A stretch of DNA of 64,000 nt from a virus: the IMG/VR virus record IMGVR_UViG_3300029431_000104; one strand, given 5' to 3'. Below are positions 3,640-49,998 of the stretch, one piece after another. The position numbers were made by a program, and so were the translations under genes. Position 1 is the first letter of the stretch; each line of letters opens with the position of its first letter. The notes under the pieces are model-generated. The model was given only the letters and a program-made list of their open reading frames with translations. It searched no databases and was not told where the DNA came from.

Positions 3640-3700
3640 AACTTTTACCAGTCACGATAAAACATCGAGAGCTATAACTTTTCAGAGCTTTTCATCATAA

Positions 3701-3760
3701 TTGGAGAGAATTGCTTTTAATTGGAGAAAAATGGCTTATATTGGAGAAAAAACGCATTGC
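3701..3760. repeat. 3 x 20-bp tandem direct repeats (TTGGAGArAAwkGCTTwTAA)
   Basis: ttggagagaattgcttttaa / ttggagaaaaatggcttata / ttggagaaaaaacgcattgc read directly from the sequence; the third copy overlaps the -35 of the downstream promoter. Confidence 0.7.
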
Positions 3761-3786
3761 ATCGTATGTAGACCCGTGCTATAATA
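3757..3786 (+). promoter_or_regulatory. sigma-70-like promoter (TTGCAT-18 nt-TGcTATAAT)
   Basis: -35 TTGCAT at 3757-3762, extended -10 TGCTATAAT at 3778-3786. Confidence 0.45.
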
Positions 3787-3819
3787 TAAACTGTCAAAAG
3801 CTAAAGAGAAGCAAACAAA

Positions 3820-3853
3820 CAGCCGATAGGTCAAAATCCTGTCGGCTGTTTTC
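3820..3853 (+). terminator. leader hairpin/terminator between promoter and the PemK-like gene
   Basis: CAGCCGATAGG-tcaaaat-CCTGTCGGCTG 11-bp stem (one G-U wobble) followed by TTTTC; lies in the 5' leader, about 50 nt upstream of the RBS. Confidence 0.55.
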
Positions 3854-3901
3854 ATGCCCTCTTTGGCTTTTTTTATTATGCGTCAAGGAGGTGGAACCCG
3901 T

Positions 3902-4483
3902 ATGGGGCGCAAGAAGAAAAATGCAAGACATAGCGTGCATGGTCGCAAGATTCATGTCAACAAGTACATCAATCAATGCGGAAAAACCAAGAAGTGCCGC
4001 AAGTCAGCAGTATCCTGGCGGCCGGCATCGAAAGAAACACCGTTTAATGATATGCCGACCTACCAGTGGCCGACTGTGAGAACCCCAAAACAGTATGAAG
4101 TCTGGTTCGCAGAGCTAGGCGATCACTCTGGCACTTCGGTGCAGAGCGGTACACGTCCAGTTCTGGTCATCAGCAATGACGTGGCGAATCGTAATTCCCC
4201 GGTCATTACAGTGATTCCGCTGAGTTCCAAGTTGAAGAAGCTGGAACTTCCGGTACACATCGTACTTACAGAAAAAGAGTGTGAGATGCTCAGGGATGAG
4301 CATTTGGAGGATTCCATCCTGCTGGTGGAGCAGATCACAACCATCGATAAGATGGTTCTGTTTAATCGGCTCTGCTATGTGGTCTCCGTTCAGAAGAAGT
4401 ACGAGATCGAAGCGGCTGTCACAAAGCAGTTTGCGATGCGGGCTTCAACACATGGTGCGAATTCTACGAGAAAGGAGGTCTGA
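3902..4483 (+). CDS. PemK/MazF-family endoribonuclease-like protein with N-terminal basic Cys/His extension
   Basis: Core YEVWFAELGDHSGTSVQSGTRPVLVISNDVANRNSPVITVIPLSSK matches the PemK/Kid/MazF signature (GEIW..LDPT.G.EQ.G.RPVLIV....VVPVTS). Strong RBS AAGGAGGTG sits before the ATG at 3902. An alternative start is the ATG at 4052 (core only). The N-terminal ~50 aa is K/R/H/C-rich (HSVHGRKIHVNKYINQCGKTKKC). Confidence 0.65.
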   Translation: MGRKKKNARHSVHGRKIHVNKYINQCGKTKKCRKSAVSWRPASKETPFNDMPTYQWPTVRTPKQYEVWFAELGDHSGTSVQSGTRPVLVISNDVANRNSPVITVIPLSSKLKKLELPVHIVLTEKECEMLRDEHLEDSILLVEQITTIDKMVLFNRLCYVVSVQKKYEIEAAVTKQFAMRASTHGANSTRKEV

Positions 4484-4488
4484 CCGCT

Positions 4489-6900: not shown

Positions 6901-6997
6901 GCTTGAAATTCAAGGTACGGACGGATTTGTTGCGGCTGTTGCTGGAAGAACACAGTGAAATCTATTGTTTTTGATTTTCATAAGTTCCCATCAAAAT

Positions 6998-7292
6998 ACC
7001 AGCAACACACGACTTCGGAGTCACGTTACCAGCAACAGCAGCAACGCCCCAGCAACAGAAAAACGTAGGAAAATCAAGGGTTTTCGGTGCTGTTGCGAGT
7101 GTTGCGAGTGAAAACCCTATTTTATTTATATTATTTTCTTTTATATACTATTTACTTTTTACTAGCAACAATAGCAACAAAAGAAAAAATATAGATCTTA
7201 ACACCCCTGAAAAGTGCGTAAAATCAATATTTTTGGGGACTGGACACCTCGCTTTGTGAGGAAAGCGCCAGCAACACACCAGCAACAGATTC
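6998..7292. repeat. iteron cluster plus AT-rich tract (candidate phage origin of replication)
   Basis: At least 8 copies of (C/T)AGCAACA (7000, 7030, 7036, 7050, 7165, 7174, 7269, 7280); tandem GTTGCGAGT x2 (7093-7110); AT-rich 7111-7200; immediately downstream of the primase. Confidence 0.5.
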
Positions 7293-7406
7293 AGAGGACA
7301 CATTGGAACTACACAATGGAACATCGCAGGCCGCTTTTGTGGGAGCCTATTTGTGGGCAAGGGCAAAGGCGGCTTGCTTTGTGATACATGAAAGAGAGGA
7401 CAGAAC

Positions 7407-8474
7407 ATGAGTAAGATTATCACCTGTGAACAGGTCAGCAATGGCCATCCTGATAAGATCTGTGACCAGATCGCAGATGCTATTGTGACCGACATTCTTC
7501 AGCATGACAGGCACGCCCGTGTGGCGATCGAGTGTCTGCTGAAAAAGAGCCAGCTCTTTATTGCCGGCGAGGTCACCACCGACTACCGGCCAAACTACAA
7601 CCAGATCGTCCATGATGTGTTCAATCGCATCGGCGCCGAAAAGCTGGGGTGGAACCTGACCGAGCTTCTTCGCATCGGCATTCTGGTGGACAAGCAGTCC
7701 CCGGACATTGCACTGGGTGTGGACAAGGGCGGTGCCGGTGACCAGGGCATCATGTATGGCTACGCCACCAACGAGACAGCAGAGCAGATGCCAATCCCGT
7801 ACATGGTTGCCACCAAGTTCCTGCAGCTGCTGAAGAACCATCCGTCCAAGATGTTCCGAGCAGATGCCAAGGCGCAGGTCAGCTACGATTACGACACCGG
7901 CCGAATCACCACCTTCCTCTGCTCCGTGCAGCACAGCCCGGATGTGGAGGTCAGCGACTTCCGGCATATCATCGAATCCATGATGGTGCTGGCCGCCTGC
8001 GAGTACGGTCTGGATGGTGACTTCACGAAGCTGGTTAATCCGACCGGTCGTTTCGTGCTGGGCGGCAGCTATGCTGACTGTGGTGTGACTGGCCGGAAGC
8101 TGGCGTGCGATACCTACGGTGGCATCGGTCGCATGGGTGGTGGTGCATTGAGTGGCAAAGACCCTACCAAGGTGGACCGCTCCGCAGCATACATGGCTCG
8201 GAAGATCGCCAAAGACATCGTGCAGGCGGGCTACGCTGACAAGTGCGAAGTCCAGCTGGCTTACGCCATCGGCGTGGTACAGCCAGTCGGTGTGTCGGTG
8301 GAGTGCTTCGGTACAGAGCACCAGTCCCTTGACTTCATCGAAGCCTACGTCCATGACAGCTACGACCTGACCCCGCAGGGTATCATCAAGCGGCTGGGAC
8401 TGCTGGATGTAGATTACAACAAGGTCAGTGCTTACGGTCACTTCGGCAAGGCTGGTCTTCCGTGGGAGGACTGA
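7407..8474 (+). CDS. metK: S-adenosylmethionine synthetase (methionine adenosyltransferase), phage-encoded
   Basis: N-terminal hallmark SNGHPDKICDQIADAI; GAGDQGIMYGYATNET; DAKAQVSYDYD; NPTGRFVLGGSYADCGVTGRKLACDTYGG; GGGALSGKDPTKVDRSAAY. These motifs are collinear with bacterial MetK over the whole length (355 aa). Confidence 0.9.
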   Translation: MSKIITCEQVSNGHPDKICDQIADAIVTDILQHDRHARVAIECLLKKSQLFIAGEVTTDYRPNYNQIVHDVFNRIGAEKLGWNLTELLRIGILVDKQSPDIALGVDKGGAGDQGIMYGYATNETAEQMPIPYMVATKFLQLLKNHPSKMFRADAKAQVSYDYDTGRITTFLCSVQHSPDVEVSDFRHIIESMMVLAACEYGLDGDFTKLVNPTGRFVLGGSYADCGVTGRKLACDTYGGIGRMGGGALSGKDPTKVDRSAAYMARKIAKDIVQAGYADKCEVQLAYAIGVVQPVGVSVECFGTEHQSLDFIEAYVHDSYDLTPQGIIKRLGLLDVDYNKVSAYGHFGKAGLPWED

Positions 8475-8477
8475 CCC

Positions 8478-8837
8478 ATGCCGTACAGACCAAAGACACC
8501 GTGCCGTCATCCCGGCTGCCCGGAGCTGGTGGAAGCCGGCCGGCTCTACTGTGAGAAGCACCTGCTTCTCCACCCGGAAGTAACCCGCCCGGCGGCGAAG
8601 CGTGGATACAACAGGCGGTGGCAGAAAGCCCGAAAGTCATATCTCGAAGCTCATCCGCTCTGTGTGCAGTGCGCCAAGCAGGGTAAGTACGTCCGGGCAA
8701 CGGTGGTGGATCACATCATTCCGCACCGTGGTGACCAGAAACTTTTCTGGGACCAGAACAACTGGCAGTCGCTCTGTAAGAGCTGCCACGATAAGAAGAC
8801 GCTGACCGAAGACATCAACCCGACCTACACCTACTGA
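8478..8837 (+). CDS. HNH endonuclease
   Basis: 119 aa; C-x2-C...VDHIIPH...N...LCKSCHDKKT (HNH ββα-Me motif with zinc ligands). Confidence 0.8.
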   Translation: MPYRPKTPCRHPGCPELVEAGRLYCEKHLLLHPEVTRPAAKRGYNRRWQKARKSYLEAHPLCVQCAKQGKYVRATVVDHIIPHRGDQKLFWDQNNWQSLCKSCHDKKTLTEDINPTYTY

Positions 8838-9237
8838 CACTCCCACCGGGGCCGGGGTCACTTCTCTACAGTGAAGTCACACGAAGACCGGTGCGCCCTT
8901 TTCTGTGAAAAACCGCAAAATTCATAGGCCGGGGGTCAGAGGAATAACGACGCAAAATGAAACAGGAAAATGTACAGGCATCGGAGCTTCGGTTCCGGTG
9001 CCATTCTTTTTCCCCGAAATGAACCAAAGTGTGTGAAACCTCTCGTAAACAGGGAGCTTTCGCACATTTTAGCTTGTTCCGGGAGGAGCAGGGGCGAGCG
9101 GGAATCGGCCGTCGCAACAACGATCCAACCTGGCGGGGCAGTGCCGATTTCAACTTCGCTGCTTTTCGTATGTATTTTGAAATTTTTCTAAGAAACCGCC
9201 GAAGAAACGGCGAAAAATGAGAGTGAGGTGAGGGCAG

Positions 9238-9558
9238 ATGGAAGATTACACGGCTGAGATGATTAGGGACATGGCTTTTTCCTTCTGCCCTCAGTGCGGT
9301 ACGGCAATCGTACCAAACCATAAAGGCAGACCACGGAAGTTCTGCTCACCGGAATGCCGGTCACGGTGGAACAACACCCATCCAAAGCCGGAGAACTGGA
9401 AGACCGTGCGGTCGAAGATCTGCCCGGTGTGCGGCAGGGAGTTTTCCTACCGGCACCAGTATGGTCTGGAACGGAAATATTGCAGCCGTGCCTGTGCAAA
9501 CAAAGGACGCTGGAAGGAGGGCGATGCAAATGGAAGAACCGCTGAACATAGAACGTAA
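9238..9558 (+). CDS. double zinc-ribbon protein
   Basis: 106 aa; two CxxCG-x16-18-CSxxCR units (CPQCG...CSPECR; CPVCG...CSRAC). Confidence 0.5.
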   Translation: MEDYTAEMIRDMAFSFCPQCGTAIVPNHKGRPRKFCSPECRSRWNNTHPKPENWKTVRSKICPVCGREFSYRHQYGLERKYCSRACANKGRWKEGDANGRTAEHRT

Positions 9559-10024
9559 TGTGGTAAAGAACGGTGTCCGGCTGGACTGTGTGTTTGAGGG
9601 CTATGAGTACCGCCCGGAGAGGGAAGAAGTCCGAAGCCAGCGGCTTGCCGGGTTTGAATGTGTGGAGATCGCAGAAAACACCGGGTTGTCTTTGGAACAG
9701 GTCACGGATTACTGTCGGGAACTGGGTCTGCCGGAAACGGGGAGCTGCCAGTTACAGCCGTCGGATGGGTCGAGGGAACGGCACTGTCCGGTTTGTGGAC
9801 GCATTCTCGTGCAGAGAGGGAACAGTGGTCGGAGACGGTTCTGTTCTCCTGAGTGCCGGGAGGAATATTACAGGCAGCATAAGTCTTTTAGGATCGCGGT
9901 CTGTAAAAACTGTGGAAGGGAGTTCCATGCCGTAGATGAAGGAAAACGGCAGCGGAAGTTCTGCAGTCTGAATTGTTACTGGGATTATCGATACGGGATG
10001 AAGGGAGTGGATGAGGATGAGTAA
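9524..10024 (+). CDS. HTH (sigma-70 region-4-like) plus double zinc-ribbon protein
   Basis: The ORF track lists 9461; the ATG at 9524 after GGAAGGAGGG is preferred. Residues FECVEIAENTGLSLEQVTDYCRELGL resemble an HTH. Two ribbons follow: CPVCG...CSPECR and CKNCG...CSLNC. It is a paralog of the preceding gene. Confidence 0.5.
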   Translation: MQMEEPLNIERNVVKNGVRLDCVFEGYEYRPEREEVRSQRLAGFECVEIAENTGLSLEQVTDYCRELGLPETGSCQLQPSDGSRERHCPVCGRILVQRGNSGRRRFCSPECREEYYRQHKSFRIAVCKNCGREFHAVDEGKRQRKFCSLNCYWDYRYGMKGVDEDE

Positions 10025-10235
10025 GATTATCGGTGTGTTTCCGATGTTCAACACCGGGGGTATCTGTGTACATGCGATTGACGATGCGGAAGATAAGGTC
10101 CTGGCATCCGTGAACGGGGAAAACCCGGAATGGTACGAGATGGCTGAACATCCGCAGGAAGATGGAGATGAGATGGAGTCGGGCTTTTTGTTCGGCTCCT
10201 TTTTCGTGCCGTTCTCCGGGGTCATGCGCATGTGA
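10011..10235 (+). CDS. small hypothetical protein
   Basis: 74-aa ORF overlapping the previous stop; acidic, with a hydrophobic C-terminus; weakly supported. Confidence 0.3.
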   Translation: MRMSKIIGVFPMFNTGGICVHAIDDAEDKVLASVNGENPEWYEMAEHPQEDGDEMESGFLFGSFFVPFSGVMRM

Positions 10236-10256
10236 ATCTGAATTAGGAGGGCTTAC

Positions 10257-11525
10257 ATGAAAGCGACTGCTGAACTGAAGATGCTGCCGGTGTCCGTACT
10301 CAAGCCGGCCGCATACAATCCCCGGAAAAAGCTGAAGCCGGGGGATAAAGAGTACGAGAAGATCAAGAACTCCATCACGGAGTTCGGGTTCGCAGATCCT
10401 TTGGTGGTCAATGCCGACATGACGATCATCGGCGGCCACCAGAGACTGACTGTTGCAATGGAACTGGGCTATACCGAAGTGCCTTGTGCGGTGGTGGACA
10501 TCGACAAGACCAGGGAAAAAGCCCTGAACATTGCGCTCAACAAGATCACGGGTGCATGGGATGATTCCCTGCTGGCTGATCTTTTGAAGGACATCGAAGA
10601 TTCCAACTTCGACCTTGGCAAGACCGGCTTTGAGCCGCCGGAGATTGAGACCCTGTTCAACAAGGTCCACAGCAAGGAGGTCAAGGAAGATGACTTTGAT
10701 GTGGAATCCGAGCTGAAACAGCCATGCTTCTCCAAAGAGGGCGACCTCTGGCATCTGGGTAAGCACATCGTTCTGTGCGGGGATTCCACCAAAGCGGAAT
10801 GCTATGACACCCTGATGGACGGAACCAAGGCAAATCTGGTCCTTTCCGATCCCCCTTATAACGTGGATGTGGAAGAGACTGCCGGTAAGATCATGAATGA
10901 CAACATGGGCGATTCGGAATTCTACCAGTTCCTTCTGGCAGCGTTCCAGCAGATGCACGGCCATCTTGCAGACGACGGTTCCATCTACATCTTCCATGCA
11001 GATACGGAAGGGCTGAACTTTAGAAAGGCATTCAAGGATGCCGGGTTCTACCTGTCCGGGTGCTGTATCTGGAAGAAGAATGCGCTGGTGCTGGGCCGTA
11101 GTCCTTACCAGTGGCAGCACGAGCCGTGTCTTTACGGCTGGAAGCAGAAGGGAAAGCACCAGTGGTATTCCGACCGGAAGCAGACGACCATCTGGGAGTA
11201 CGACCGGCCGAAGTCCAACAAGGACCATCCGACCATGAAGCCCATCGGCCTGATGAGCTATCCGATCCGCAACTCTACTATGACCAACGGCATCGTCCTC
11301 GATCCGTTCCTGGGCAGCGGCTCGACCCTGATCGCCTGTGAGGAGACCGACCGTGTGTGCCGGGGCATCGAGTTGGACCCGAAGTTCGTGGATGTGATCG
11401 TGAAGCGGTACATCGAACACAGCGATGGTCACTACGATGATGTGTATGTCATCCGTGACGGCCAGAAGCTGAAGTTCGAGGAAGTGGCGACCTTCGAGCC
11501 GGAAAGCGAGGATGCCGATGCCTGA
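10257..11525 (+). CDS. ParB-like nuclease domain / DNA methyltransferase (N6-adenine or N4-cytosine type) fusion
   Basis: N-terminal ParB-N motif (LKPAAYNPRK...GGHQRL); methylase motif IV LSDPPYNVDVEE; motif I DPFLGSGSTLIA; RBS GGAGGG. Confidence 0.85.
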   Translation: MKATAELKMLPVSVLKPAAYNPRKKLKPGDKEYEKIKNSITEFGFADPLVVNADMTIIGGHQRLTVAMELGYTEVPCAVVDIDKTREKALNIALNKITGAWDDSLLADLLKDIEDSNFDLGKTGFEPPEIETLFNKVHSKEVKEDDFDVESELKQPCFSKEGDLWHLGKHIVLCGDSTKAECYDTLMDGTKANLVLSDPPYNVDVEETAGKIMNDNMGDSEFYQFLLAAFQQMHGHLADDGSIYIFHADTEGLNFRKAFKDAGFYLSGCCIWKKNALVLGRSPYQWQHEPCLYGWKQKGKHQWYSDRKQTTIWEYDRPKSNKDHPTMKPIGLMSYPIRNSTMTNGIVLDPFLGSGSTLIACEETDRVCRGIELDPKFVDVIVKRYIEHSDGHYDDVYVIRDGQKLKFEEVATFEPESEDADA

Positions 11526-12291
11526 TGTAAAATGCGTCCTCATCCATGACAACTTCCAGAATTTCAAGTCCTATAACATCCCCAAGGCGCAGCTGGTGAT
11601 CGCAGACATTCCGTACAACATCGGTACAGATTTCTATGCCAGCCGGCCGGACTGGTATGTGGATGGCGACAACAAAAACGGGGAGAGTAGCAAGGCGCGG
11701 AAGGCGGCATTCAATACCGATTTCACCTTCAACATTGCAGAGTATTTCCACTTCTGCAACCGCCTGCTGAAGAAAGAACCCGGCACAGGAGAGAAGGATG
11801 CGCCGTGCATGATCGTGTTCTGTGCGTTTCAACAGATCCCGAAGGTGATCACCGAAGCAGAGAAATACGGTTTCAAGAATTATATCCCGCTGGTGTTTTG
11901 CAAGAACTACAGTCCGCAGGTTTTAAAGGCCAACATGAAGATCGTGGGTGCAACGGAGTATGCTCTGGTTCTGTACCGGGGAAAGCTCCCGAAGTTCCGT
12001 AATCTCGGTGAGGACGGAAAGCCCCATATGATCTTCAACTGGTTTGACTGGAAGCGGGATGGCAGGGAATATCCGAAAATCCATCCTTCCCAGAAACCGA
12101 TCTCCGTGCTGAAACGACTGATCGAGACCTTTACAGATGAGGGCGATGTGGTCATTGACCCCTGCGCCGGCAGCGGCTCCACGCTGAGAGCAGCAAGAGA
12201 ACTGGGGCGCAACAGCTACGGATTTGAAGTATCCAGAGACTTTTACCAGAAAGCAAATGAGCAGATGCTCGGAGAGGAGGTCGCCGGATGA
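11512..12291 (+). CDS. DNA methyltransferase (N6/N4 family, second copy)
   Basis: 259 aa; motif IV-like IADIPYN; motif I VIDPCAGSGSTLRAA; overlaps the upstream gene by 14 nt. Confidence 0.8.
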   Translation: MPMPDVKCVLIHDNFQNFKSYNIPKAQLVIADIPYNIGTDFYASRPDWYVDGDNKNGESSKARKAAFNTDFTFNIAEYFHFCNRLLKKEPGTGEKDAPCMIVFCAFQQIPKVITEAEKYGFKNYIPLVFCKNYSPQVLKANMKIVGATEYALVLYRGKLPKFRNLGEDGKPHMIFNWFDWKRDGREYPKIHPSQKPISVLKRLIETFTDEGDVVIDPCAGSGSTLRAARELGRNSYGFEVSRDFYQKANEQMLGEEVAG

Positions 12292-14546
12292 GCACAGAAC
12301 AGAATAAGACTTTGACCCTCGGCAGCCTCTTTGATGGCTCCGGGGGTTTTCCATTGGGCGGTCTGTTGACCGGGCAGATCACTCCGGTGTGGAGCAGCGA
12401 GATCGAGCCGTTTGCCATCCGGGTCACGACCAAACGTCTGCCGCAGGTGAAGCACTACGGAGATGTGTCTGCCATCAGCGGAGCAGACCTGCCTCCAGTG
12501 GACATCATCACTTTTGGGAGTCCCTGTCAGGATATGTCCATCGCCGGTAAGCGGGACGGTCTGGATGGTTCACGGTCCAGTCTGTTTTACGAAGCAATCC
12601 GAATCGTGAAGGAAATGAGGTGTAAGACCAATGGAGAAAAACCAAGATTTATCGTGTGGGAGAATGTGCCAGGGGCCTTCTCCTCAAACAAAGGGCAGGA
12701 CTTCAAAGCAGTCCTCGAAGCCGTCATCGGTGTTAAAGAACCGGCCGCCTCGGTGCCTGCGCCTGAGAAGAAAGGATGGCCCGATGCCGACTACTATGTG
12801 GGAGACGGATGGAGCGTCGCGTATCGAGTTCTTGATGCACAGTGGTGGGGCGTTCCCCAAAGAAGAAAACGTATCTACCTTGTCGCAGATTTTGCAGACC
12901 AGAGTGCCCCAAAGGTACTATTTGAGTCCGAAGGCGTGTCTCGGTATTCTGCGGAGGGCTTCCGTGCGTGGCAAAGAGCTGCCGCCGGTGCTGAAAGCGG
13001 CACTGGAGAGGCAGGCTGTAACGGAGCAGGAGGACGGATCTGTCTGAACGACCAGGGCGGCAGGCAGATGGATGTTTCCAAAGATGTGACCGGAACCCTA
13101 CGGGCAGAGGAGCATGGGCATCAGCCGTGTGTTCTGGAAGCCGCCGGTTTTTGTACCGAGCATTCCGCAGATGCCAGAAGCATCGGATACGAGGAAGAGC
13201 GGTCACAGACCCTCCGAGCTGGTGTTGTGCCTGCCGCCATCGCACTGGAGAATCATCCTGCTGACAGCCGGGTGAAGATTTCCGAGGACGGTAAGGTGCA
13301 GACACTGACAAGCCGGTGTGGTACGGGTGGCGGCAATGTCCCGATGGTCATGGATGCTGTTGAAAATTCAGTGGAAAGCTCGGTGAAAGATGTTGAAAAC
13401 TCCCCGGCAGTCACACTGAAAATTCGCTCCGGTTGCGAGGGCGGCGGGAAGGGAGCCATCTGGCAGGAAGAAAAGTCGGCCACCCTCGGCTGCAACAACG
13501 ACCAGACACTGTTCGTTCCGAAATGCTATGGCGTCTGTTCCAAAGTCAGCCATTCCATGATGTCCGATAATCCGCACAGCGGTTTTTATGAGGCCGAAAC
13601 TTCCCGGACACTGGACCGCAGCGGCGGTGACCCGACCTGCAATCAGGGCGGTATCTGTGTGGTAGAGCCGGTCGCCTTTACCCAGAACCAGAGGGATGAA
13701 GTCCGGGATCTTGGAGAAAAGTCAGCGGCACTGGCAGCAGATCCAGGGATGAAGCAGCAGACCTTTGTGGCACAGCCGGAAGATGTGACAGTCTTCCATG
13801 TGAACCAGCGCAATGAGCTGATCGATCTGCATGGTAAGTCCGGCGCTTTGATGGCGACCCGGAGTGACCAGATGCAGACCTTCGTCCTGCAGGGCAACAT
13901 GATCGGCCGCAAGGATGAGAACGGTCCGCAGGGGGATGGTGTCAATGAGGATGTCTGCTTTACACTGGATGCCACTGACCGCCATGCAGTCTGCGCACCG
14001 GAGGATGTGTATGCCATGACCACCGGCTCCTATATGCAGGTGGCAAAAGAAGTCGCACCGACCCTGATGGCACGGGATTACAAAGACCCGACCACCATCG
14101 CACCGGTACCGCATTTGAACGAGGGTGTCATGGGAACGGTGGCAACCGGGGCACATCCCAGCGGCTTCAACGGGCAGGATGCTTTCAATGACCGTCTGGT
14201 CATCGACAATCCGGAAGCACAGCCCGCACCTGTGACCTATACAGTTCGCCGTTTGACACCGACCGAGTGTGCCAGACTGCAGGGCTTCCCAGACTGGTGG
14301 TGCAGAGACCTCGGAACGGAAGACCCGACCGAAGAAGAGCTGGCATTCTGGGCAGATGTGTTTGAAACGCACCGTAAGATCGTGACCCATGCCAAGAAGC
14401 CGAAAACGGAGAAGCAGATCCGGAAATGGCTGGCTGACCCGTATACGGATTCGGCCGAGTACCGTATCTGGGGCAACGGCATTTGCTTAGCCAACGCATT
14501 CTTTGTTCTGGCCGGCATCGCATGGTGTGCAGGTCTGGAAGAATAA
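12288..14546 (+). CDS. DNA (cytosine-5)-methyltransferase, large (752 aa) with extended variable region
   Basis: Motif I LFDGSGG; motif IV GSPCQDMSIAG; motif VI ENVPG; C-terminal motif IX/X RRLTPTECARLQGFPD; a ~450-aa variable/target-recognition region suggests a multispecific enzyme. Confidence 0.85.
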   Translation: MSTEQNKTLTLGSLFDGSGGFPLGGLLTGQITPVWSSEIEPFAIRVTTKRLPQVKHYGDVSAISGADLPPVDIITFGSPCQDMSIAGKRDGLDGSRSSLFYEAIRIVKEMRCKTNGEKPRFIVWENVPGAFSSNKGQDFKAVLEAVIGVKEPAASVPAPEKKGWPDADYYVGDGWSVAYRVLDAQWWGVPQRRKRIYLVADFADQSAPKVLFESEGVSRYSAEGFRAWQRAAAGAESGTGEAGCNGAGGRICLNDQGGRQMDVSKDVTGTLRAEEHGHQPCVLEAAGFCTEHSADARSIGYEEERSQTLRAGVVPAAIALENHPADSRVKISEDGKVQTLTSRCGTGGGNVPMVMDAVENSVESSVKDVENSPAVTLKIRSGCEGGGKGAIWQEEKSATLGCNNDQTLFVPKCYGVCSKVSHSMMSDNPHSGFYEAETSRTLDRSGGDPTCNQGGICVVEPVAFTQNQRDEVRDLGEKSAALAADPGMKQQTFVAQPEDVTVFHVNQRNELIDLHGKSGALMATRSDQMQTFVLQGNMIGRKDENGPQGDGVNEDVCFTLDATDRHAVCAPEDVYAMTTGSYMQVAKEVAPTLMARDYKDPTTIAPVPHLNEGVMGTVATGAHPSGFNGQDAFNDRLVIDNPEAQPAPVTYTVRRLTPTECARLQGFPDWWCRDLGTEDPTEEELAFWADVFETHRKIVTHAKKPKTEKQIRKWLADPYTDSAEYRIWGNGICLANAFFVLAGIAWCAGLEE

Positions 14547-14678
14547 ACTGGCCCGCTATATTACTAGGTAGAAAGCGACCTGTTGATATGGTGGGCTTAC
14601 ATATTGGTCCTATTTACACAACAGATTTTGCGGCCCCTTGTGTAAATGGTCGAACATGAAGAATATCGGGAAATGGCC

Positions 14679-14709
14679 TTGCTATTCATCCGTTTTAGAG
14701 TGATATATG
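14679..14709 (+). promoter_or_regulatory. degenerate copy of the repeated early promoter
   Basis: CCTTGCTAT ... TGATATATG ... ACCGAAAAG shares the -35 TTGCTA and the ACCGAAAG leader with the 16111-22984 promoter family. Confidence 0.35.
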
Positions 14710-14769
14710 TGCTACCGAAAAGAACATCGGGATGCACAAAAACAAATGAACGAAAAGGAGCGATGAATT

Positions 14770-15954
14770 ATGTTGAAATTTAAACTGAACGTAGCCGAGA
14801 GAAAGACCCTCGCAAAACGCATGGAGGAGCTGACCGGCATCCACCCTTACTATACCAAAGCACCTCTGTATTCTTACGACATCGGGAGCTACACCATCGA
14901 CCGGAATGGCAACCTTCTGGTCGAGCCGGAGAATGCAGATGCCGAGCTGCTGACGACCCTGCTGAATGAGGGACTGATCCGCGGCGGCGAGAGTATTGAG
15001 AGTACGGATGACCAGCCGGAGGACACAGAGCTGACAGCGGATATGGATGAGGAGCCTGTGACCGAAGCGGAAACTGAGCAGATGCCCGAAGCAGAGCTGG
15101 AGGTTCTGGACGAGCAGGAATCCGAAGATGCAGATACCGCAGAAGATGAACCTGCGGAAGCAGGAGCCGAGGATGCATTGGAGCCGGACAATACGGCTGA
15201 GGATGATACCATAGAGGATGAGCCGGATGCAGAATCGCAGGAGACAGAAGATCAGCCGGAAGAGGTGCCGCTGGACTTGGAACTTGCATTCCCGGTCAGC
15301 CAGCACAACGGTGTGACTCTCCGCAACCTGGTCAACCTTCTTTACAGCCGCGGCAAGCTCATCGGCAAGGCGACTGGAGGACACTTCCATGTGGAAGAGG
15401 GGCTGGTCGAGAAGCTGAAGGACGATAGCTGCACCTTTGCCATCATGAACTTCATCAATGCGGTCAGCGACTATGAGACTGAACATGGTGCTGCACTGGA
15501 AGGCCTGAAAATCACCACCGAGAAGGTCACCTTTACCGGCTTCCCGACTGCACCGGACCACGAACATCTGACGGCTTTTGCACAGCTGGCGGTGCTGATG
15601 AACCAGCAGGCTATCAGCCAGAAGCGCATCCAGGCAAAGGATGTCAACGATGAGAATGAGAAATACTCACTCCGCACATGGCTCCTGCGGCTGGGGATGA
15701 ACGGTCCGGATTTCAAAGAGACACGCAAGATCCTCATGGAGAACCTTTCCGGCCATGCGGCTTTCCGCACGGATGAGGAAGCACAGAAGTTCCTTGCAAG
15801 GGAAAAGGCAAAACGGGATGCCCTGAAAGCCGCGAAACTGGCGGCACAGAACGGCGATCCTGCCACAGGGGAAACGGTCGCACCGGATACGACCCGGCCG
15901 ACACAGCCCGACTGTGGGGCAGACATGGCGCAGATGCTGGAGGCGGGAGCGTAA
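14770..15954 (+). CDS. divergent amidoligase-like paralog (probable pseudoenzyme) with ~100-aa poly-acidic insert
   Basis: 394 aa. Its N-terminus (NVAERKTLAKRMEELTG) aligns to the amidoligase NITREKAARKVAEYFGT. GGHFHVEEG aligns to GCGVHIHIG, KVTFTGF to GTIEFRLF, and the C-terminal NEKYSLRTWLLRLGMNGPDFKETRKILMENLSGHAAFR to NEKYAMRCWMLRLGFIGDEFATAREILLRNMEGNASWR. The catalytic E-x-E and E/R positions are replaced. Residues 85-190 are almost entirely D/E. Confidence 0.6.
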   Translation: MLKFKLNVAERKTLAKRMEELTGIHPYYTKAPLYSYDIGSYTIDRNGNLLVEPENADAELLTTLLNEGLIRGGESIESTDDQPEDTELTADMDEEPVTEAETEQMPEAELEVLDEQESEDADTAEDEPAEAGAEDALEPDNTAEDDTIEDEPDAESQETEDQPEEVPLDLELAFPVSQHNGVTLRNLVNLLYSRGKLIGKATGGHFHVEEGLVEKLKDDSCTFAIMNFINAVSDYETEHGAALEGLKITTEKVTFTGFPTAPDHEHLTAFAQLAVLMNQQAISQKRIQAKDVNDENEKYSLRTWLLRLGMNGPDFKETRKILMENLSGHAAFRTDEEAQKFLAREKAKRDALKAAKLAAQNGDPATGETVAPDTTRPTQPDCGADMAQMLEAGA

Positions 15955-16110
15955 GCTCCCAATCCCCCAATGGGGGCCGGAAAATATGCGAGACCCTCTT
16001 CCATTGTACCGATATTAGCTCTGAAAATGTACATTATCAAGCGGATAAACTGCAGAAATGTACACGATCATTCTGCCTTATATTTGTCGAATATATGTTC
16101 TTTTATATCC

Positions 16111-16139
16111 TTGCTATTATCCGCACCTGACGGTAATAT
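16111..16139 (+). promoter_or_regulatory. repeated early promoter copy (TTGCTA-17-TAATAT) driving the amidoligase operon
   Basis: TTGCTA 16111-16116, 17-nt spacer ending TGACGG, TAATAT 16134-16139; leader CACATACCGAAAGGGAAAAC; same element as the 20248-22984 copies. Confidence 0.6.
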
Positions 16140-16186
16140 GCACATACCGAAAGGGAAAACAAGGAAAAAACAAAGGAGAACATACC

Positions 16187-17125
16187 ATGAACGATAAAAC
16201 AAGAGAGCAGATTGAAGCCATGAAGAACCAGACCATCGGAGTTGAGATTGAGATGAACAACATCACCAGAGAAAAAGCGGCAAGAAAGGTCGCCGAGTAC
16301 TTCGGAACCAGAGCATGGAACGCCGCCGGCGAGTACGGATATTACAGCTGGGCTTGCAAGGATGGACAGGGCAGGGTTTGGAAATTCCAGAGGGATGTGA
16401 GCATCTACGGACCGGACGCAGAAAAATGCGAACTGGTCACCCCGATCCTCACCTACGACGACATCGAAACCTTGCAGGAAATCATCCGGCTGCTCCGAAA
16501 GGCAGGCGCAAAGAGCGGCCCAAGCCGCGGATGCGGAGTCCACATTCACATTGGCAAAGGCGACCACACCGCAAAGACCATCCGCAACCTTGTGAACATC
16601 ATGGCGGCGCACGAACAGCAGATCGGCAGAGCCATCCGGATCGATGCAGGGCGCACCGGACAATATTGCCAGGTGGTCAACCATCGCTTCCTCGACCGGC
16701 TGAACCGCGAGAAGCCGACCACCATGCACAGGCTGGAAGACATCTGGTACGAAGGCAACGGTTCCAGCTGGGAAAACCGGAATGCCCACTACAATTCAAG
16801 CCGGTACCATATGCTGAACCTCCATGCCACCTTTACAAAAGGGACCATTGAATTCCGCCTTTTCCAATTCGCAGACCCAGCGGACGGAAAGCGCAACGGA
16901 CTGCACGCCGGTGAGATGAAAGCCTATATCCAGCTTTGCCTCGCAATGAGCCAGCTTGCCAAGATGGTCAGGACGGCAAGCCCAAAGCCCCAGCAGACCG
17001 ACAATGAAAAGTATGCGATGCGGTGCTGGATGCTGAGGCTGGGATTCATCGGGGATGAATTTGCAACGGCAAGGGAAATCCTTCTGCGGAACATGGAGGG
17101 CAACGCATCCTGGCGGAACAAATAA
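16187..17125 (+). CDS. amidoligase (Amidoligase_2 / glutamine-synthetase-like fold)
   Basis: 312 aa starting at an internal ATG after the AAAGGAGAA RBS. GS-like motifs are present: GVEIEMN (E-x-E), GCGVHIHIG (H-x-H) and GTIEFRLF (E, R). Iyer et al. 2009 described this family in phages and conjugative elements. Confidence 0.8.
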   Translation: MNDKTREQIEAMKNQTIGVEIEMNNITREKAARKVAEYFGTRAWNAAGEYGYYSWACKDGQGRVWKFQRDVSIYGPDAEKCELVTPILTYDDIETLQEIIRLLRKAGAKSGPSRGCGVHIHIGKGDHTAKTIRNLVNIMAAHEQQIGRAIRIDAGRTGQYCQVVNHRFLDRLNREKPTTMHRLEDIWYEGNGSSWENRNAHYNSSRYHMLNLHATFTKGTIEFRLFQFADPADGKRNGLHAGEMKAYIQLCLAMSQLAKMVRTASPKPQQTDNEKYAMRCWMLRLGFIGDEFATAREILLRNMEGNASWRNK

Positions 17126-25768: not shown

Positions 25769-25984
25769 ATGAAGTATCTGATGAGTGCAGAATGGTGGAA
25801 GGCAGCCGGCATCCGTGCTGCAAAGACGATGTTCCAGACTGGTGCGGCTCTGGTCGTGACACAGATGCCCGGCGGCACTGTGGACTGGGTTGCAGTTGGC
25901 AGCGCGGCTATTGTGGCAGGTGTTGCGTCCCTTGGTACCAGCCTTGCCGGCCTGCCGGAACTGGAGAAAGGAGATAAGGCTTAA
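25769..25984 (+). CDS. small putative membrane protein (71 aa)
   Basis: GGAGG RBS 8 nt before the ATG at 25769; hydrophobic Gly/Ala-rich segment. Confidence 0.4.
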   Translation: MKYLMSAEWWKAAGIRAAKTMFQTGAALVVTQMPGGTVDWVAVGSAAIVAGVASLGTSLAGLPELEKGDKA

Positions 25985-31615: not shown

Positions 31616-31633
31616 GCAGGGCTTCGGCTCTGC
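31616..31633 (+). repeat. 18-bp direct repeat with UUCG-tetraloop hairpin (left copy)
   Basis: GCAGGGCTTCGGCTCTGC; stem CAGGGC/GCUCUG with UUCG loop; identical copy at 32505. Confidence 0.7.
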
Positions 31634-31661
31634 TTACATTATTATAAAGAGGTATACGATT

Positions 31662-32489
31662 ATGAAGAAGATTTTTCCTTTGTTCGCAGTGATCATCGTT
31701 CTGGTGCTGGCTGTCTGCTCGTTCCACATCATCCCCACCGGTTACACGGGCGTGAAGACCAGCTTCGGTCAGATCCAGGAGACCACTATCCAGAGTGGCA
31801 AGCTCAACTTCTGCATTCCCTTTGTGCAGAGCATCCACAAGGTCAACAACAAGCAGCAGGATAAGCACATCGAGGCGCAGGTATGGGGCGAAGCCGCCGA
31901 TAAAACACCTGTGTATGCCGCTGATGTCATCGTGACCTATCAGGTGCTTCCTGAGAAGAGTGCATGGCTGTATGCGAATGTGTCCGACATCAAGAATCTG
32001 GTCGGTGACGAGCTGGTGGCATCGGCCATTAAGTCTGCGATGGCTGAACTTGCCCCCAATGAGGTAACCAACCGCACCAAGATCGAGCCTCTGGCACAGC
32101 AGAAGCTGGCAGAGTCCATTGTGCAGAAATATGGTGAGAACGTTGTGTTCGTAAACAAGGTCGTCATCAACGACATGAATTTCGAGGATGCCTATAACGA
32201 AGCCATCCAGCAGAAGTCCATTGCACAGCAGAACGCAGATAAGCAGAAGATTGAGAATGAAGCCGCCATTGCCAAGGCAGAAGCGGATAAGCAGGTGGCG
32301 ATCACCAATGCAGAGGCGGAAGCACAGAAAACTTCCATTGCCGCAGACGCACAGGCAGAGGCAAACCGCAAACTGGCAGAAAGTCTGTCCGATACGCTGA
32401 TCGATTACCAGAAGGTTCAGAAGTGGGATGGCAAGCTGCCCACTGTGAGCGGCGGTAATGCACTGGTGAGCATTGACCCGGTAGAGTAA
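31662..32489 (+). CDS. SPFH/band-7 (prohibitin/HflK-like) membrane protein inserted in the tail module
   Basis: 275 aa; N-terminal TM helix IFPLFAVIIVLVLAV; SPFH core (TGYTGVKTSFGQIQ...VTYQV); long A/E/K/Q coiled-coil C-terminus. Confidence 0.75.
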   Translation: MKKIFPLFAVIIVLVLAVCSFHIIPTGYTGVKTSFGQIQETTIQSGKLNFCIPFVQSIHKVNNKQQDKHIEAQVWGEAADKTPVYAADVIVTYQVLPEKSAWLYANVSDIKNLVGDELVASAIKSAMAELAPNEVTNRTKIEPLAQQKLAESIVQKYGENVVFVNKVVINDMNFEDAYNEAIQQKSIAQQNADKQKIENEAAIAKAEADKQVAITNAEAEAQKTSIAADAQAEANRKLAESLSDTLIDYQKVQKWDGKLPTVSGGNALVSIDPVE

Positions 32490-32504
32490 GAAACACGATA
32501 TATG

Positions 32505-32522
32505 GCAGGGCTTCGGCTCTGC
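32505..32522 (+). repeat. 18-bp direct repeat with UUCG-tetraloop hairpin (right copy)
   Basis: Identical GCAGGGCTTCGGCTCTGC; followed by GGAGGATTACGATTATG, which mirrors GAGGTATACGATTATG after the left copy. Confidence 0.7.
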
Positions 32523-32555
32523 CAATTTTACATGAAATTTTGGAGGATTACGATT

Positions 32556-32936
32556 ATGGCAGTTACAAAGAAAATTGAGATCGATGGCAAGGAAGTCACC
32601 TTTAAGGCAAGTGCCGCTGTGCCTCGCCTGTACCGCATCAAGTTCGGCCGTGACATCTACAAGGATCTGCGCCAGCTGGAAAAGAGCGTGGGAGAGAATG
32701 ATGAGGATAATTCCAACCTCGACCTGTTCAGTCTGGAAATGTTCGAGGACCTGGCATGGCTGATGGCCCGTCATGCTGACCCCGCGAATGTGCCGGACAG
32801 CCCGGAGGAGTTCCTGGACCAGTTCAACACCTTCTCCATCTACCAGATCCTGCCTCAGCTGATCGAACTGTGGGGTCTGAATGTGCAGACCGAGGTAGAA
32901 TCCAGAAAAAACCTCGCAAAAGTGAGCGGGAAATGA
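32556..32936 (+). CDS. tail assembly chaperone (G-like product)
   Basis: 126 aa; MAVTKKIEIDGKEVTFKASAAVPRLYRIKFGRD typical TAC N-terminus; sits between the major tail and tape measure genes. Confidence 0.75.
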   Translation: MAVTKKIEIDGKEVTFKASAAVPRLYRIKFGRDIYKDLRQLEKSVGENDEDNSNLDLFSLEMFEDLAWLMARHADPANVPDSPEEFLDQFNTFSIYQILPQLIELWGLNVQTEVESRKNLAKVSGK

Positions 32937-33097
32937 CCACCCCGCTCTTTCTGCTGCGCTGTGTACAGCTCGGTATCAGCATCGCCGATCTCGACCTGCT
33001 GACCATCGGGTTGGTCAATGATATGTTCACGGAGCGGCAGAACGACGACTATCCGTACAAAGAGCTGGCCTCGCAGGAGGATTTCGACCGGTTCTAA
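32556..33097 (+). CDS. tail assembly chaperone frameshift fusion product (GT-like)
   Basis: -1 shift at 32906-32912 joins ...ESRK to KPRKSEREMTTPLFLLRCVQLGISIADLDLL...DFDRF. Confidence 0.6.
32906..32912 (+). promoter_or_regulatory. -1 programmed ribosomal frameshift slippery heptamer A AAA AAC
   Basis: The heptamer is in frame (AGA AAA AAC) 24 nt before the TAC stop. The -1 frame stays open to 33097. Confidence 0.65.
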
Positions 33098-33196: not shown

Positions 33197-33312
33197 GAAA
33201 GAAGGTGGCCTAAAGGTCATCTTCCCGGCCTCGGACCTCGCAAGGTTACCGAAACCTGATTGCTGCTGAAAGTATAGCCGATTTAGTAGTGCTAGTCAGG
33301 TAGAAAGAAAAC

Positions 33313-33555
33313 TTAGGCAGTCTTTTTAGAATTGCAATAGTCATAGAGATTCAGAAGATAGTCGGGGCTTTCTCTCCAAATTCCGGTATCATAGTCGAAA
33401 AGTGTTTCATATACTTTTGAATTTGTGAAGCGTAACAGTGCATCTTCATAGGAAATAGTATCACGCAAAGCGAGTTCTTTGACCGTATCGCGCATGAGAC
33501 TGACAGCACAGCTTTCTTTCTGCGTATCTGTGAAGTTATAGTTTGACATCTCCAT
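33313..33555 (-). CDS. DUF3791-like small protein (copy B)
   Basis: 80 aa from the ATG at 33555 (minus strand), with AAGGAG RBS 8 nt upstream; ...SYEDALLRFTNSKVYETLFDYDTGIW...YLLNLYDY. Confidence 0.5.
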   Translation of the reverse strand: MEMSNYNFTDTQKESCAVSLMRDTVKELALRDTISYEDALLRFTNSKVYETLFDYDTGIWRESPDYLLNLYDYCNSKKTA

Positions 33556-34117
33556 AGCGGTCACTCCTTATATATTCAAGATGATTAACGGCGTCCTGCG
33601 TGCGAAAACAGAATTGGTCTTTTAGGCGATTGGGAAGAAGTTTTTCAATAGCTATTTTGTCTGATTTCGGTGTGCCGGGGATACCAAAGTCAACGCCACC
33701 GATATACTGCTGTAAGGTGTGGGCTGTTTGGTCATCTGCAATTTTTCCACCGATGATGTCGATGGTGCCGTATTTTTTCAAAAGTTGTGGGAACAAATCC
33801 TTTTTTCGGTTTGCTGCTACAAAATGAAGCCATTCAACAGAGGCTCCTTGGAAACAGTAAGCTAATATGTTGGGATCGTAGTGGAATTTGTAAACAGATA
33901 TCTGTCCGTCTTCCGGGTTGAAATCTTTTGGAACTGTACCAATACGCATCGCTTTCCTAACCGAAAGCTGAACGTAATTGTACGCTTGCTCGTAGGAAGA
34001 TGTAAGATAAAAACCTCGGCCAAAATCGAGTCCACCAAAGCAGCGATTCAGGTCAATCGCCGGGATACCAATGTAGCTACCGTGGTACAGAAGCATCCCA
34101 TCCTGCAATTCGATCAT
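33536..34117 (-). CDS. DUF3990 protein with PARP/ADP-ribosyltransferase-like H-Y-E motifs
   Basis: 193 aa. LLYHGS (H-G-S) followed by GRGFYLTSSYEQAYNY. In PARP1 the corresponding sequence is H-G-S ... GKGIYFADMVSKSANY. GAGGTG RBS present. Confidence 0.65.
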   Translation of the reverse strand: MIELQDGMLLYHGSYIGIPAIDLNRCFGGLDFGRGFYLTSSYEQAYNYVQLSVRKAMRIGTVPKDFNPEDGQISVYKFHYDPNILAYCFQGASVEWLHFVAANRKKDLFPQLLKKYGTIDIIGGKIADDQTAHTLQQYIGGVDFGIPGTPKSDKIAIEKLLPNRLKDQFCFRTQDAVNHLEYIRSDRYGDVKL

Positions 34118-34335
34118 ACGGATACACCTCGATTCTTTAACAAGGTTTCAACATCGTGAAGAACACAGGCGTAACCGTTTAGATGAAGGATGTCATAGCA
34201 TTCAGAAATAAATCCAAGAATGTCGTATTTCTTAAACAGTTCAGCACAGTCGCTGGGAGACATTTTCCACTTGGACTGAGCCATGCGGAAAACCCAGCAC
34301 TGCATATCGGCAATGTCAATATTATATTCACTCAT
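34114..34335 (-). CDS. DUF3791-like small protein (copy A)
   Basis: 73 aa from the ATG at 34335 (AAGGAGG RBS); ...SPSDCAELFKKYDILGFISECYDILHLNGY; overlaps the DUF3990 start by 4 nt. Confidence 0.5.
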   Translation of the reverse strand: MSEYNIDIADMQCWVFRMAQSKWKMSPSDCAELFKKYDILGFISECYDILHLNGYACVLHDVETLLKNRGVSV

Positions 34336-34489
34336 AGAGCGTACCTCCTTTGAGTACAATTTCTCAATTTAAGTATAGCTCTTTTTCTGCCGCTTAGCAA
34401 CGACAGAATTGTAAATTTCAGATTATTTTCCGCCTGTCTGCCCTGTGCAGATGGGCTTTTCTTATGCCTGCGAGGAGGTGGTTACACAA

Positions 34490-48528: not shown

Positions 48529-49998
48529 ATGGGATATACCAATAGTCCACTCGTTGTTTACACCAAACTTTCCCCGAACCATTCAGGGCAGAGGACACAC
48601 AGCATCGACCGTATCACACCGCATTGTGTGGTCGGTCAGCTTTCTGCGGAGAGCATCTGCGGCTGCTTCACCAGCACGAGTCGTCAGGCAAGCTGCAACT
48701 ACGGCATCGGCACAGACGGCCGTGTGTCGCTTTGTGTCGAAGAAAAGAACCGCAGCTGGTGTTCGTCGAGCAATGCCAATGACCAGAGGGCGGTCACCAT
48801 CGAATGCGCCAGCGACATGAATGAGCCGTATGCCATGAACAGTGCCGTATATGACTCTCTGGTCAAGCTCTGCATTGATATCTGCAAGCGTAACGGGAAG
48901 AAGAAGCTCCTGTGGCTGGGTGATAAAAATAAGACACTCAACTATGCTCCGGCGGCAGATGAAATGGTGCTGACCGTTCACCGCTGGTTTGCGAATAAAA
49001 GCTGCCCTGGAAACTGGCTGTATGCCCGCCTGGGTGATCTGGCCGCAAGGGTAACTGCAGCACTGGGCGGTTCATCCTCATCCGGCATGCAGGCTTCTTC
49101 GCTGAAAAATCTCTCGGAAGCAGAGGCAGTGGCAAAGATCGGTCCGCTGTTTACTGCGAACCAGAAAACCACGGGCATCCTTGCCTGCGTGTCGATGGCA
49201 CAGTTCATTCTGGAATCCGGCTACGGTAAATCTGAGCTGGCACAGAATGCCAATAACTGCTTCGGCATGAAGACCTCGCTTTCCGGGAACAGCTGGAGCG
49301 GCAGCAGTTGGGATGGCAAGTCTGTCTATCCCAAGAAAACGCAGGAGCAGAACACCGATGGCAGCTATGTGACGATCACTGCTGACTTCCGCAAGTACGC
49401 CTGTGTGGAAGACTCCATTGCCGACCATGCAGCATATCTGCTCGGAGCGATGAGTGGCAGCAGGAAACGCTATGAGGGTCTGGCAGGCTGTACCGATTAC
49501 AAGAAAGCGGCACAGATCATCAAGGATGGTGGTTATGCTACCAGCCACACCTATGTTCAGAACCTTTGCAATATCATCGAGCGTTGGAACCTGACGCAGT
49601 ATGATGCGGTAAAGGATTCTGAAAGCACCACTATTTCCGGCTGGTACCGTGTCCGTAAGAGCTGGCAGAATGCCGCTTCCCAGAAAGGTGCGTTCCACGA
49701 CCTCACCTATGCAAAACAGTGTGCAGATAAGAATCCGGGCTATTATGTTTTTGACCCGGCGGGTAAGACCGTCTACCCGGAACCGGAGTCTTCAGTCCCG
49801 TATACTGTGCGTGTATCCATTAAAGACCTCAACATCCGCAAGGGACCGGGCACGAATTACGGTAAGACCGGTTATTACACCGGGAAAGGCGTGTTTACTA
49901 TCGTGGCAGAATCTGCCGGTGCTGGTTCTGCGAAGGGCTGGGGCAAGCTGAAATCCGGTGCAGGGTGGATCGCACTTGACTTTGCGGCCCGTATCTAA
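48529..49998 (+). CDS. endolysin: N-acetylmuramoyl-L-alanine amidase (Amidase_2) + glucosaminidase + binding repeat + SH3b
   Basis: Amidase_2/PGRP N-terminus (H...C zinc ligands, TIECASD). Glucosaminidase motifs (AQFILESGYGKS, NNCFGMK, YATSHTYVQNL). C-terminal SH3_3-like KDLNIRKGPGTNYGKTGYY...GWIALDF. Confidence 0.85.
   Translation: MGYTNSPLVVYTKLSPNHSGQRTHSIDRITPHCVVGQLSAESICGCFTSTSRQASCNYGIGTDGRVSLCVEEKNRSWCSSSNANDQRAVTIECASDMNEPYAMNSAVYDSLVKLCIDICKRNGKKKLLWLGDKNKTLNYAPAADEMVLTVHRWFANKSCPGNWLYARLGDLAARVTAALGGSSSSGMQASSLKNLSEAEAVAKIGPLFTANQKTTGILACVSMAQFILESGYGKSELAQNANNCFGMKTSLSGNSWSGSSWDGKSVYPKKTQEQNTDGSYVTITADFRKYACVEDSIADHAAYLLGAMSGSRKRYEGLAGCTDYKKAAQIIKDGGYATSHTYVQNLCNIIERWNLTQYDAVKDSESTTISGWYRVRKSWQNAASQKGAFHDLTYAKQCADKNPGYYVFDPAGKTVYPEPESSVPYTVRVSIKDLNIRKGPGTNYGKTGYYTGKGVFTIVAESAGAGSAKGWGKLKSGAGWIALDFAARI

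Follow-up and report, generated by a model that had tools for sequence, protein, structure and literature searches.

How did a gene for a membrane protein come to lie among the tail genes of a phage, and what would the phage gain from it there? The question is raised by a 64,000-nt stretch of viral DNA (IMG/VR record IMGVR_UViG_3300029431_000104; "the window" below means this whole stretch), in which a gene for an SPFH/Band_7 protein sits between the major tail (tube) protein gene and the tail assembly chaperone gene, bounded by two identical 18-nt repeats that can each fold into an RNA hairpin. A sequence-only reading of the window had taken the gene for a moron, inserted by duplication of the junction between its neighbors. 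Comparison with related phage sequences leads us to read it, with high confidence, as an accessory gene that a single sub-clade of Heliusvirales-like gut siphophages gained long ago and that has become fixed there.

In sister phages (about 95 genomes overall, with tube proteins 60-69% identical to that of the window) the tube and chaperone genes abut, and the SPFH block is therefore an insertion. For example, in two Heliusvirales genomes (L001 and L002), whose tube and chaperone proteins are 60-68% identical to the window's, both genes are 1-13 nt apart, and at least 14 further NatCom Heliusvirales genomes lack about 0.93-1.04 kb exactly at the SPFH position. We also sampled 80 IMG/VR outgroup contigs with a tube identity to the window of 64-69%; in 79 out of 79 assessable contigs the spacing between the two genes is 0-20 nt, with no hairpin and no SPFH gene, so the insertion read from the window is borne out by phages that lack it. 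The native outgroup junction (GGAGGATTCAGATATG; an example is TGAGGAGGATTCAGATATG) resembles the part of the window's chaperone junction (GGAGGATTACGATTATG) that runs from the ribosome-binding site (RBS) to the ATG. Judged from these junctions, the derived state is the whole block of about 0.96 kb between the tube and chaperone genes, in the order hairpin, RBS, SPFH gene, hairpin. Since the ancestral junction has no hairpins, no pre-existing hairpin junction was duplicated.

The insertion is not recent. Among 80 IMG/VR contigs of close relatives (tube identity 88-100%), 74 were assessable, and the SPFH open reading frame (ORF) is intact in 66 of these, disrupted in six, and missing from an empty site in two; exact junctions in IMG/VR number 32 occupied vs two empty. 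Wherever relatives were checked, down to 72% tube identity, SPFH is found in this slot, and the identity of the SPFH protein drops in parallel with that of the tube protein (in L263 and L265, with tube identities of 72-77%, the SPFH proteins are 72-78% identical to the window's). Synonymous divergence (dS; Nei-Gojobori method) from L133 is 0.85 for the tube gene, 0.88 for the SPFH gene, and 0.90 for the chaperone gene, and the ratio of nonsynonymous to synonymous divergence (dN/dS) of the SPFH gene, 0.04-0.11, is as low as that of the tube protein. The G+C content (GC) of the gene is 52.4%, and 67.8% at third codon positions (GC3), against 53-54% and 69-70% in its neighbors. The conserved slot, the dS equal to that of the flanks, and the native composition together show that the insertion is old. 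The claim of a moron insertion therefore stands in so far as the gene is absent from sister phages and has junction elements (hairpin, TACAT, RBS-ATG) on both sides, but not in the sense of a sporadic gene of deviant composition. The moron concept in lambdoid phages reportedly goes back to Juhala et al. in 2000; lambdoid morons and the SPFH gene have in common that an extra gene lies between genes adjacent in related phages, with a stem-loop after it, whereas the SPFH gene has no detected promoter of its own and is fixed and co-diverging with its neighbors.

The encoded protein is a member of the SPFH family by several comparisons. The Pfam family Band_7 (PF01145) matches residues 23-209 (6e-17, 62.7 bits vs a gathering cut-off of 23.6), and phrog_200 matches with 2.5e-38. 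A single hydrophobic segment covers residues ~4-21 (Kyte-Doolittle 2.75), and the AlphaFold model of the monomer consists of a transmembrane helix (residues 5-19), an alpha/beta core (66-173), a single 78-residue helix (175-252), and a C-terminal tail beyond it. Foldseek gives a probability of 1.0 with cage-forming SPFH proteins (prohibitin, HflK/C, erlin, stomatin, and QmcA); the core aligns with stomatin SPFH domains at target-normalised TM-scores of 0.70-0.77 and a root-mean-square deviation of ~3 Å, and the best sequence matches among solved structures are HflC (6.6e-06), QmcA, prohibitin 1/2, and HflK. Pfam, AlphaFold, and Foldseek give a transmembrane helix, a band-7 core, and a long helix; the architecture proposed from the letters was a transmembrane helix, a band-7 core, and a coiled coil. 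The N-terminal MKK is almost invariant among homologues, which suggests an N-in/C-out topology, as in HflC; the N-in topology is known for HflC and predicted for the window's protein.

Several other assignments were tried for the protein and dropped. The lipoprotein label of phrog_200 does not fit, since the candidate site reads L-A-V-C19, with V at -1, and the Cys is absent from the consensus and the conserved columns of 36 homologues. No NfeD partner gene lies near the SPFH gene, and an NfeD-stomatin pairing with the ClpP-type prohead protease was rejected because that protein scores 21.9 bits with NfeD1b_N (cut-off 40) and 118.6 bits with CLP_protease, a similarity at clan level only. In one contig (L350, 3064-4032, 2.9x coverage) the first ~215 SPFH residues run on in frame into the C-terminal portion of a peptide deformylase, with host housekeeping genes after it, which accounts for the proteins with both domains among the homologues; we do not count fusions of Band_7 and Pep_deformylase (P0078 and similar) as a protein type, as they are a truncated prophage end or a low-coverage chimera beside host genes.

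Phage prohibitin-family SPFH proteins as a kind are already known, being common enough to make up a large PHROG family and annotated in many genomes; the position in a tail operon is unusual and lineage-specific. In phages of phrog_200 (Faecalibacterium phages FP_Toutatis and Lelie, Fusobacterium phage phiFN37, Desulfovibrio phage ProddE, Escherichia phage Skarpretter, and Burkholderia phage CSP3) the proteins share with the window's the Band_7 domain, an N-terminal hydrophobic anchor, a length of ~270-300 aa, and accessory status, at tblastn identities of 23-30%, but their genes are found in replication or nucleotide-metabolism modules and not in a late tail operon between hairpins. The same holds for L264, whose SPFH protein is 75-78% identical to the window's and is encoded in a replication/nucleotide-metabolism module. 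ProddE (T7-like) and Skarpretter are strictly lytic. With such varied genomic positions, lytic phages included, the gene can be said to move between phages, to have no set link with tails, and to be of use in lytic phages as well; the view that it is not a general tail-module gene is upheld, as unrelated phages carry it elsewhere. The closest non-phage relatives are prohibitin-like SPFH proteins of gut Clostridia, which have the same architecture and 41-45% identity over nearly the full length, but are encoded in chromosomal housekeeping contexts; the phage protein stands clearly apart from them, with identity dropping from ~70% within the phage SPFH family to 45% with cellular proteins and a gap in between. 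The best "phage" match at 43%, MT835486.1 (L003, "Bacteriophage sp.", UNVERIFIED), was counted as a cellular homologue: its neighbors are bacterial housekeeping-like ORFs, and no recognizable phage genes were seen within 12 kb (judged by eye from ORF translations).

What, then, are the repeats? The repeat finder gave two 100% identical copies of GCAGGGCTTCGGCTCTGC, at 31616-31633 and 32505-32522 (889 nt apart). A search that tolerated up to three mismatches found no others in the 64 kb, against 0.10 matches expected from shuffles (two or more matches occur in 0 of 100 shuffles). The predicted folding energies are -12.1 kcal/mol for hairpin 1 (z = -4.8 vs dinucleotide shuffles) and -16.6 kcal/mol for hairpin 2 (z = -4.7). 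The sequence-only reading was thus right that the repeats are identical and that each can form a UUCG hairpin; the predicted stems have 7 and 9 bp. Its statement that the ~15 nt after each repeat are duplicated as well holds in part: ACGATTATG is found at both gene starts and nowhere else in the window (31656 and 32550; 0.25 expected), and the 31-nt stretch that begins with TTACAT is 71% identical between the two junctions (31634-31664 vs 32528-32558), but this stretch follows repeat 1 directly and repeat 2 after 5 nt.

A hairpin is present at both junctions in all SPFH-bearing relatives examined. The 18-mer changes little among close relatives, and in the aligned junction variants (L263 and L265 excluded) 95.8% of cells are paired, with stem substitutions that comprise one compensatory change from A-U to G-C plus changes from G.U to A-U. 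L263 and L265 have hairpins at the same positions with entirely different stem sequences, and it is from these deeper relatives, not from covariation in the close set, that support for the hairpins comes. The 5′ arms of all hairpins have a G-rich core, GGCRGGG, in common, and the GGGCAGGG core of hairpin 2 is kept clade-wide. In L124 the same G-to-A change is seen in both copies; common origin under constraint, or gene conversion, could possibly account for the match between the two copies. A terminator scan flagged hairpin 2, and not hairpin 1, as terminator-like; its U-tract is weak (AUUUUACA), and the essential tail genes downstream require read-through. We also observed that each hairpin is followed, at a distance of 0-8 nt, by a (T/C)TACAT motif. 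Every SPFH-bearing relative retains the motif, including those with completely different stems, and it may be an RNase processing site.

We also checked where else the 18-mer occurs. In at least 60 unrelated IMG/VR viral contigs from many environments (L153-L262), longer hairpins downstream of stop codons are capped by the exact 18-mer, and many of them have a T-run behind them; as a rough estimate, which was not computed, we take one or two matches to be what a random 18-mer would give by chance in a collection of that size. This recurrence points to convergent use of the very stable C(UUCG)G hairpin. Because the 18-mer is found at such ordinary post-gene hairpins, it is a generic stable UUCG hairpin, and we ruled it out as a specific signature of a mobile element. 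One relative (L132) carries a homing-endonuclease gene (HNH_3 + AP2) just downstream of hairpin 2 and before the chaperone gene, so the junction accepts further inserts. In L006 (8999-10117) the chaperone gene occurs twice and the hairpin three times, and another cargo cassette precedes the tape-measure gene; the arrangement reflects either tandem recombination between two phage variants or a chimeric assembly.

The identical repeats could be read as a fresh target or junction duplication left by a recent insertion, and contigs with a single hairpin as the ancestral, unoccupied site. Beyond the perfect identity of the repeats, such a reading can draw on empty-site contigs (L008, L021/L059, and L022/L068), which have an identical tube protein, one hairpin, and then the chaperone gene; in these the sequence to the left of copy 1 leads through a single 18-mer precisely into the sequence to the right of copy 2. 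The three empty-site contigs differ neither in junction sequence nor in their profile of identity with the window, and are therefore one lineage. Their upstream sequence, where readable, is deleted or unrelated: L008 has a 21-kb deletion that joins window position 8538 to 29584, the sequence of L059 upstream of window position 27802 is unrelated, and in L068 the contig ends, which makes the upstream region unreadable. Similarly, contigs with internal deletions in the SPFH gene (L016/L078/L087/L112 and L032/L082) also lack or have lost head-module sequence. With an SPFH gene that is old and fixed, the empty sites read as secondary loss, and the parsimonious account is that they arose by precise excision, through recombination between the 18-nt repeats, in decaying prophages. 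A recent insertion is highly improbable, and indeed already contradicted, by the dS of the SPFH gene (equal to that of its flanks), by the tube protein of the empty-site contigs (100% identical to the window's, as in most SPFH-bearing contigs), by the single lineage of these contigs, and by the true outgroup junction, which has no hairpin at all; we therefore rejected both the fresh insertion scar and the ancestral empty site. Nor are the repeats a fresh insertion footprint of the kind that the sequence-only reading saw in them: only the RBS-ATG part resembles the outgroup junction, and the SPFH gene, under strong purifying selection, has diverged together with its neighbors until synonymous sites are nearly saturated. 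Perfect direct repeats on either side of a gene are not enough to tell the age of an insertion; in this locus the repeats are conserved RNA hairpins, at which excision occasionally takes place.

The evolutionary and structural description of the locus can be given with high confidence. As to function, we favor, at about an even chance, a late-expressed, single-pass membrane scaffold of the prohibitin/HflC type that would act in lytic growth, with hairpins that work at the RNA level. The SPFH gene would have no promoter of its own and would be transcribed together with the late tail operon; the hairpins would act on the RNA as leaky attenuators, or as 3′-end stabilizers after processing at the conserved UACAU, and so split the polycistronic message into segments of differing abundance. 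The protein would insert N-in/C-out into the host membrane and assemble there into a multimeric cage, like other SPFH proteins, which would most plausibly corral a host membrane protease such as FtsH or stabilize the membrane until holin-triggered lysis, raising the phage yield in lytic growth and not serving the lysogen. A known cage of this kind is HflK/HflC of Escherichia coli, which modulates FtsH and thereby lambda CII. Its subunits share with the window's protein an N-terminal transmembrane segment after basic residues, an SPFH domain, a long helix, and a C-terminal tail; HflK and HflC are encoded by a gene pair, whereas no paired hflK-hflC genes were found in the window, where a single SPFH gene is flanked by the tube and chaperone genes. 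A scan of the plus strand upstream of the SPFH gene, which covers the sigma-70 consensus only, found no sigma-70-like site. The sole pairing has its -10 element 1 nt before the ATG, and a sigma-70 promoter in the TTACA...TACGAT motif for the downstream gene was rejected because its -10 would end 1 nt before the ATG.

Several points weigh against this reading. A non-canonical or prophage-active SPFH promoter, beyond the sigma-70 consensus, is possible. Neither hairpin has a strong U-tract, and covariation in the close set is weak (one compensatory pair), which is why we take the RNA role of the hairpins from conservation and analogy. The AlphaFold model has a modest mean confidence (a predicted local distance difference test score, pLDDT, of 63), the suggested topology comes from the positive-inside rule only, and the protein falls far below the HflC equivalog cut-offs (NF008259, 29 bits vs 427; TIGR01932, 22.2 vs 134.4). 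That FtsH may be the protease concerned is suggested by family resemblance only. According to a phage genomics paper of 2026, why phages carry SPFH genes "remains unclear" (PMC13239085), and our literature searches found no functional study of any phage SPFH protein. Confidence in a specific mechanism, be it control of a host protease or membrane stabilization and lysis timing, is accordingly low to moderate. A fuller account, in which SPFH is an integral late function that forms an extracytoplasmic cage controlling a host membrane protease or the timing of lysis, and in which hairpin-UACAU modules set the stoichiometry of tube, SPFH, and chaperone proteins by RNA processing, is speculative and rather unlikely as a whole; if true, it would give a first defined role to the widespread, uncharacterized phage SPFH family (phrog_200).

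The gene might instead serve the lysogen as a prophage-expressed moron, by superinfection exclusion at the membrane, by defense, or by lysogeny control via FtsH, the roles proposed from the sequence alone. A gene that sister phages lack and that encodes a membrane protein fits this, as do the defense-type cargo in the neighboring slot between the chaperone and tape-measure genes and, as general knowledge, the modulation of FtsH and lambda CII by HflK/C. Yet the gene is co-oriented in a late operon between two hairpins with no promoter-like site upstream, no family of PADLOC-DB 2.0 matches the protein at E <= 0.01, the gene is invariant across the clade and compositionally native, unlike the variable cargo nearby, and some homologues belong to strictly lytic phages, where no lysogen exists that could benefit; none of the proposed roles has positive evidence, and we consider service to the lysogen unlikely, if well short of negligible. 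A morphogenetic role, in which SPFH would offer tail assembly a platform or scaffold at the membrane or would be associated with the virion, would explain why the gene keeps its place among the tail genes down to 72% tube identity, as well as the purifying selection as strong as on the tube protein, and the loss of SPFH only in contigs with deleted or unrelated upstream sequence, where readable. We regard it as quite improbable, because sister phages build their tails from homologous tube, chaperone, and tape-measure genes and have no SPFH, and because the SPFH genes of unrelated phages are in replication modules and not tail modules; we also know of no virion counterpart of a transmembrane-anchored SPFH cage. 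For the study of phage SPFH proteins, the window offers a tractable case, with strong purifying selection, a defined late operon, and one of the most prevalent human-gut prophage lineages, and natural precise-deletion and internal-deletion alleles of the SPFH gene exist for comparison.

The features of the locus are listed in Table 1. The SPFH start codon is the ATG at 31662, not 31663, and the exact tube protein was found in 18,327 index blocks. The short ORF after the chaperone gene is likely a chaperone extension (gpT-like).

Table 1. Features of the SPFH locus, in window coordinates.
Feature	Position	Strand	Evidence and remarks
Major tail (tube) protein gene, 204 aa	30985..31599	+	phrog_88 6.7e-59, Pfam L_lac_phage_MSP; upstream flank of insert
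Hairpin 1, GCAGGGC-UUCG-GCUCUGC, 7-bp stem including one G.U pair	31616..31633	+	Folding, repeat search
Spacer 1: TTACAT (31634-31639), RBS AGAGG (31648-31652), ACGATTATG (31656-31664) including the SPFH start codon	31634..31664	+	
SPFH/Band_7 (prohibitin-HflC-like) membrane protein gene, 275 aa	31662..32489	+	Pfam, PHROG
Hairpin 2: same 18-nt core (32505-32522), 9-bp stem, then AAUUUUACAU	32503..32524	+	
Spacer 2: TTACAT (32528-32533), RBS GGAGG, ACGATTATG at chaperone start	32528..32558	+	
Tail assembly chaperone gene (gpG-like), 126 aa	32556..32936	+	phrog_709 1.1e-39; downstream flank
Short ORF, 54 aa as called in relatives	32933..33097	+	phrog_3033 1.9e-23

Upstream of the tube gene lie genes for a tail terminator, an HK97-gp10-like protein, head closure, capsid, the ClpP-type prohead protease, portal, and TerL, and downstream of the chaperone gene those for the tape measure, Dit, Tal, a GDSL-domain tail protein, and endolysin; this set of head and tail genes identifies the window as a siphophage or prophage genome. 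It resembles "Ca. Heliusvirales" gut phages at about 65-74% DNA identity. SPFH proteins 94-98% identical to the window's were found in prophages of genomes named Blautia faecis, Blautia sp., Faecalibacterium intestinale, Lawsonibacter asaccharolyticus, Clostridium fessum, and Wujia chipingensis (L135-L147), hosts that we take to span different families of Clostridia. This spread fits the broad host range reported for the Heliusvirales lineage, which is reported to be among the most prevalent in humans (PMC11283538; 10.64898/2026.01.26.701711).

The slot between the chaperone and tape-measure genes (33201-34432), 0.4 kb downstream, is a hotspot of variable cargo. In the window it holds a DUF3791/DUF3990/83-aa cassette of three reverse-strand genes (33313-33564, 33536-34117, and 34114-34359) with a GC of 41-44%, in which the DUF3990 and DUF3791 genes match the PADLOC candidate PDC-M13. 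Close relatives have AbiEii, Abi_2, RelB/YoeB + Abi_2, ATPase_2/DUF234, HTH + DUF6036, or a pair of 111 + 107 aa in the same slot, and the right breakpoint of the cargo does not vary: it falls at window position 34432, on a hairpin that directly precedes the tape-measure gene. In contrast to this variable defense-cargo slot, SPFH is invariant cargo.

Two further observations concern other parts of the window. A gene for an r1t-type holin (71 aa, 25769-25984; Pfam Phage_r1t_holin 6.4e-08) lies between the large terminase and portal genes, far from the endolysin gene (48529-49998). The early region (987-17125) is rich in genes of DNA-modification and anti-restriction type, and contains genes for an SNF2 helicase, a D5-type primase-helicase, an SAM synthetase, a ParB-N6/N4 methylase, a large C5 methylase, and an amidoligase.

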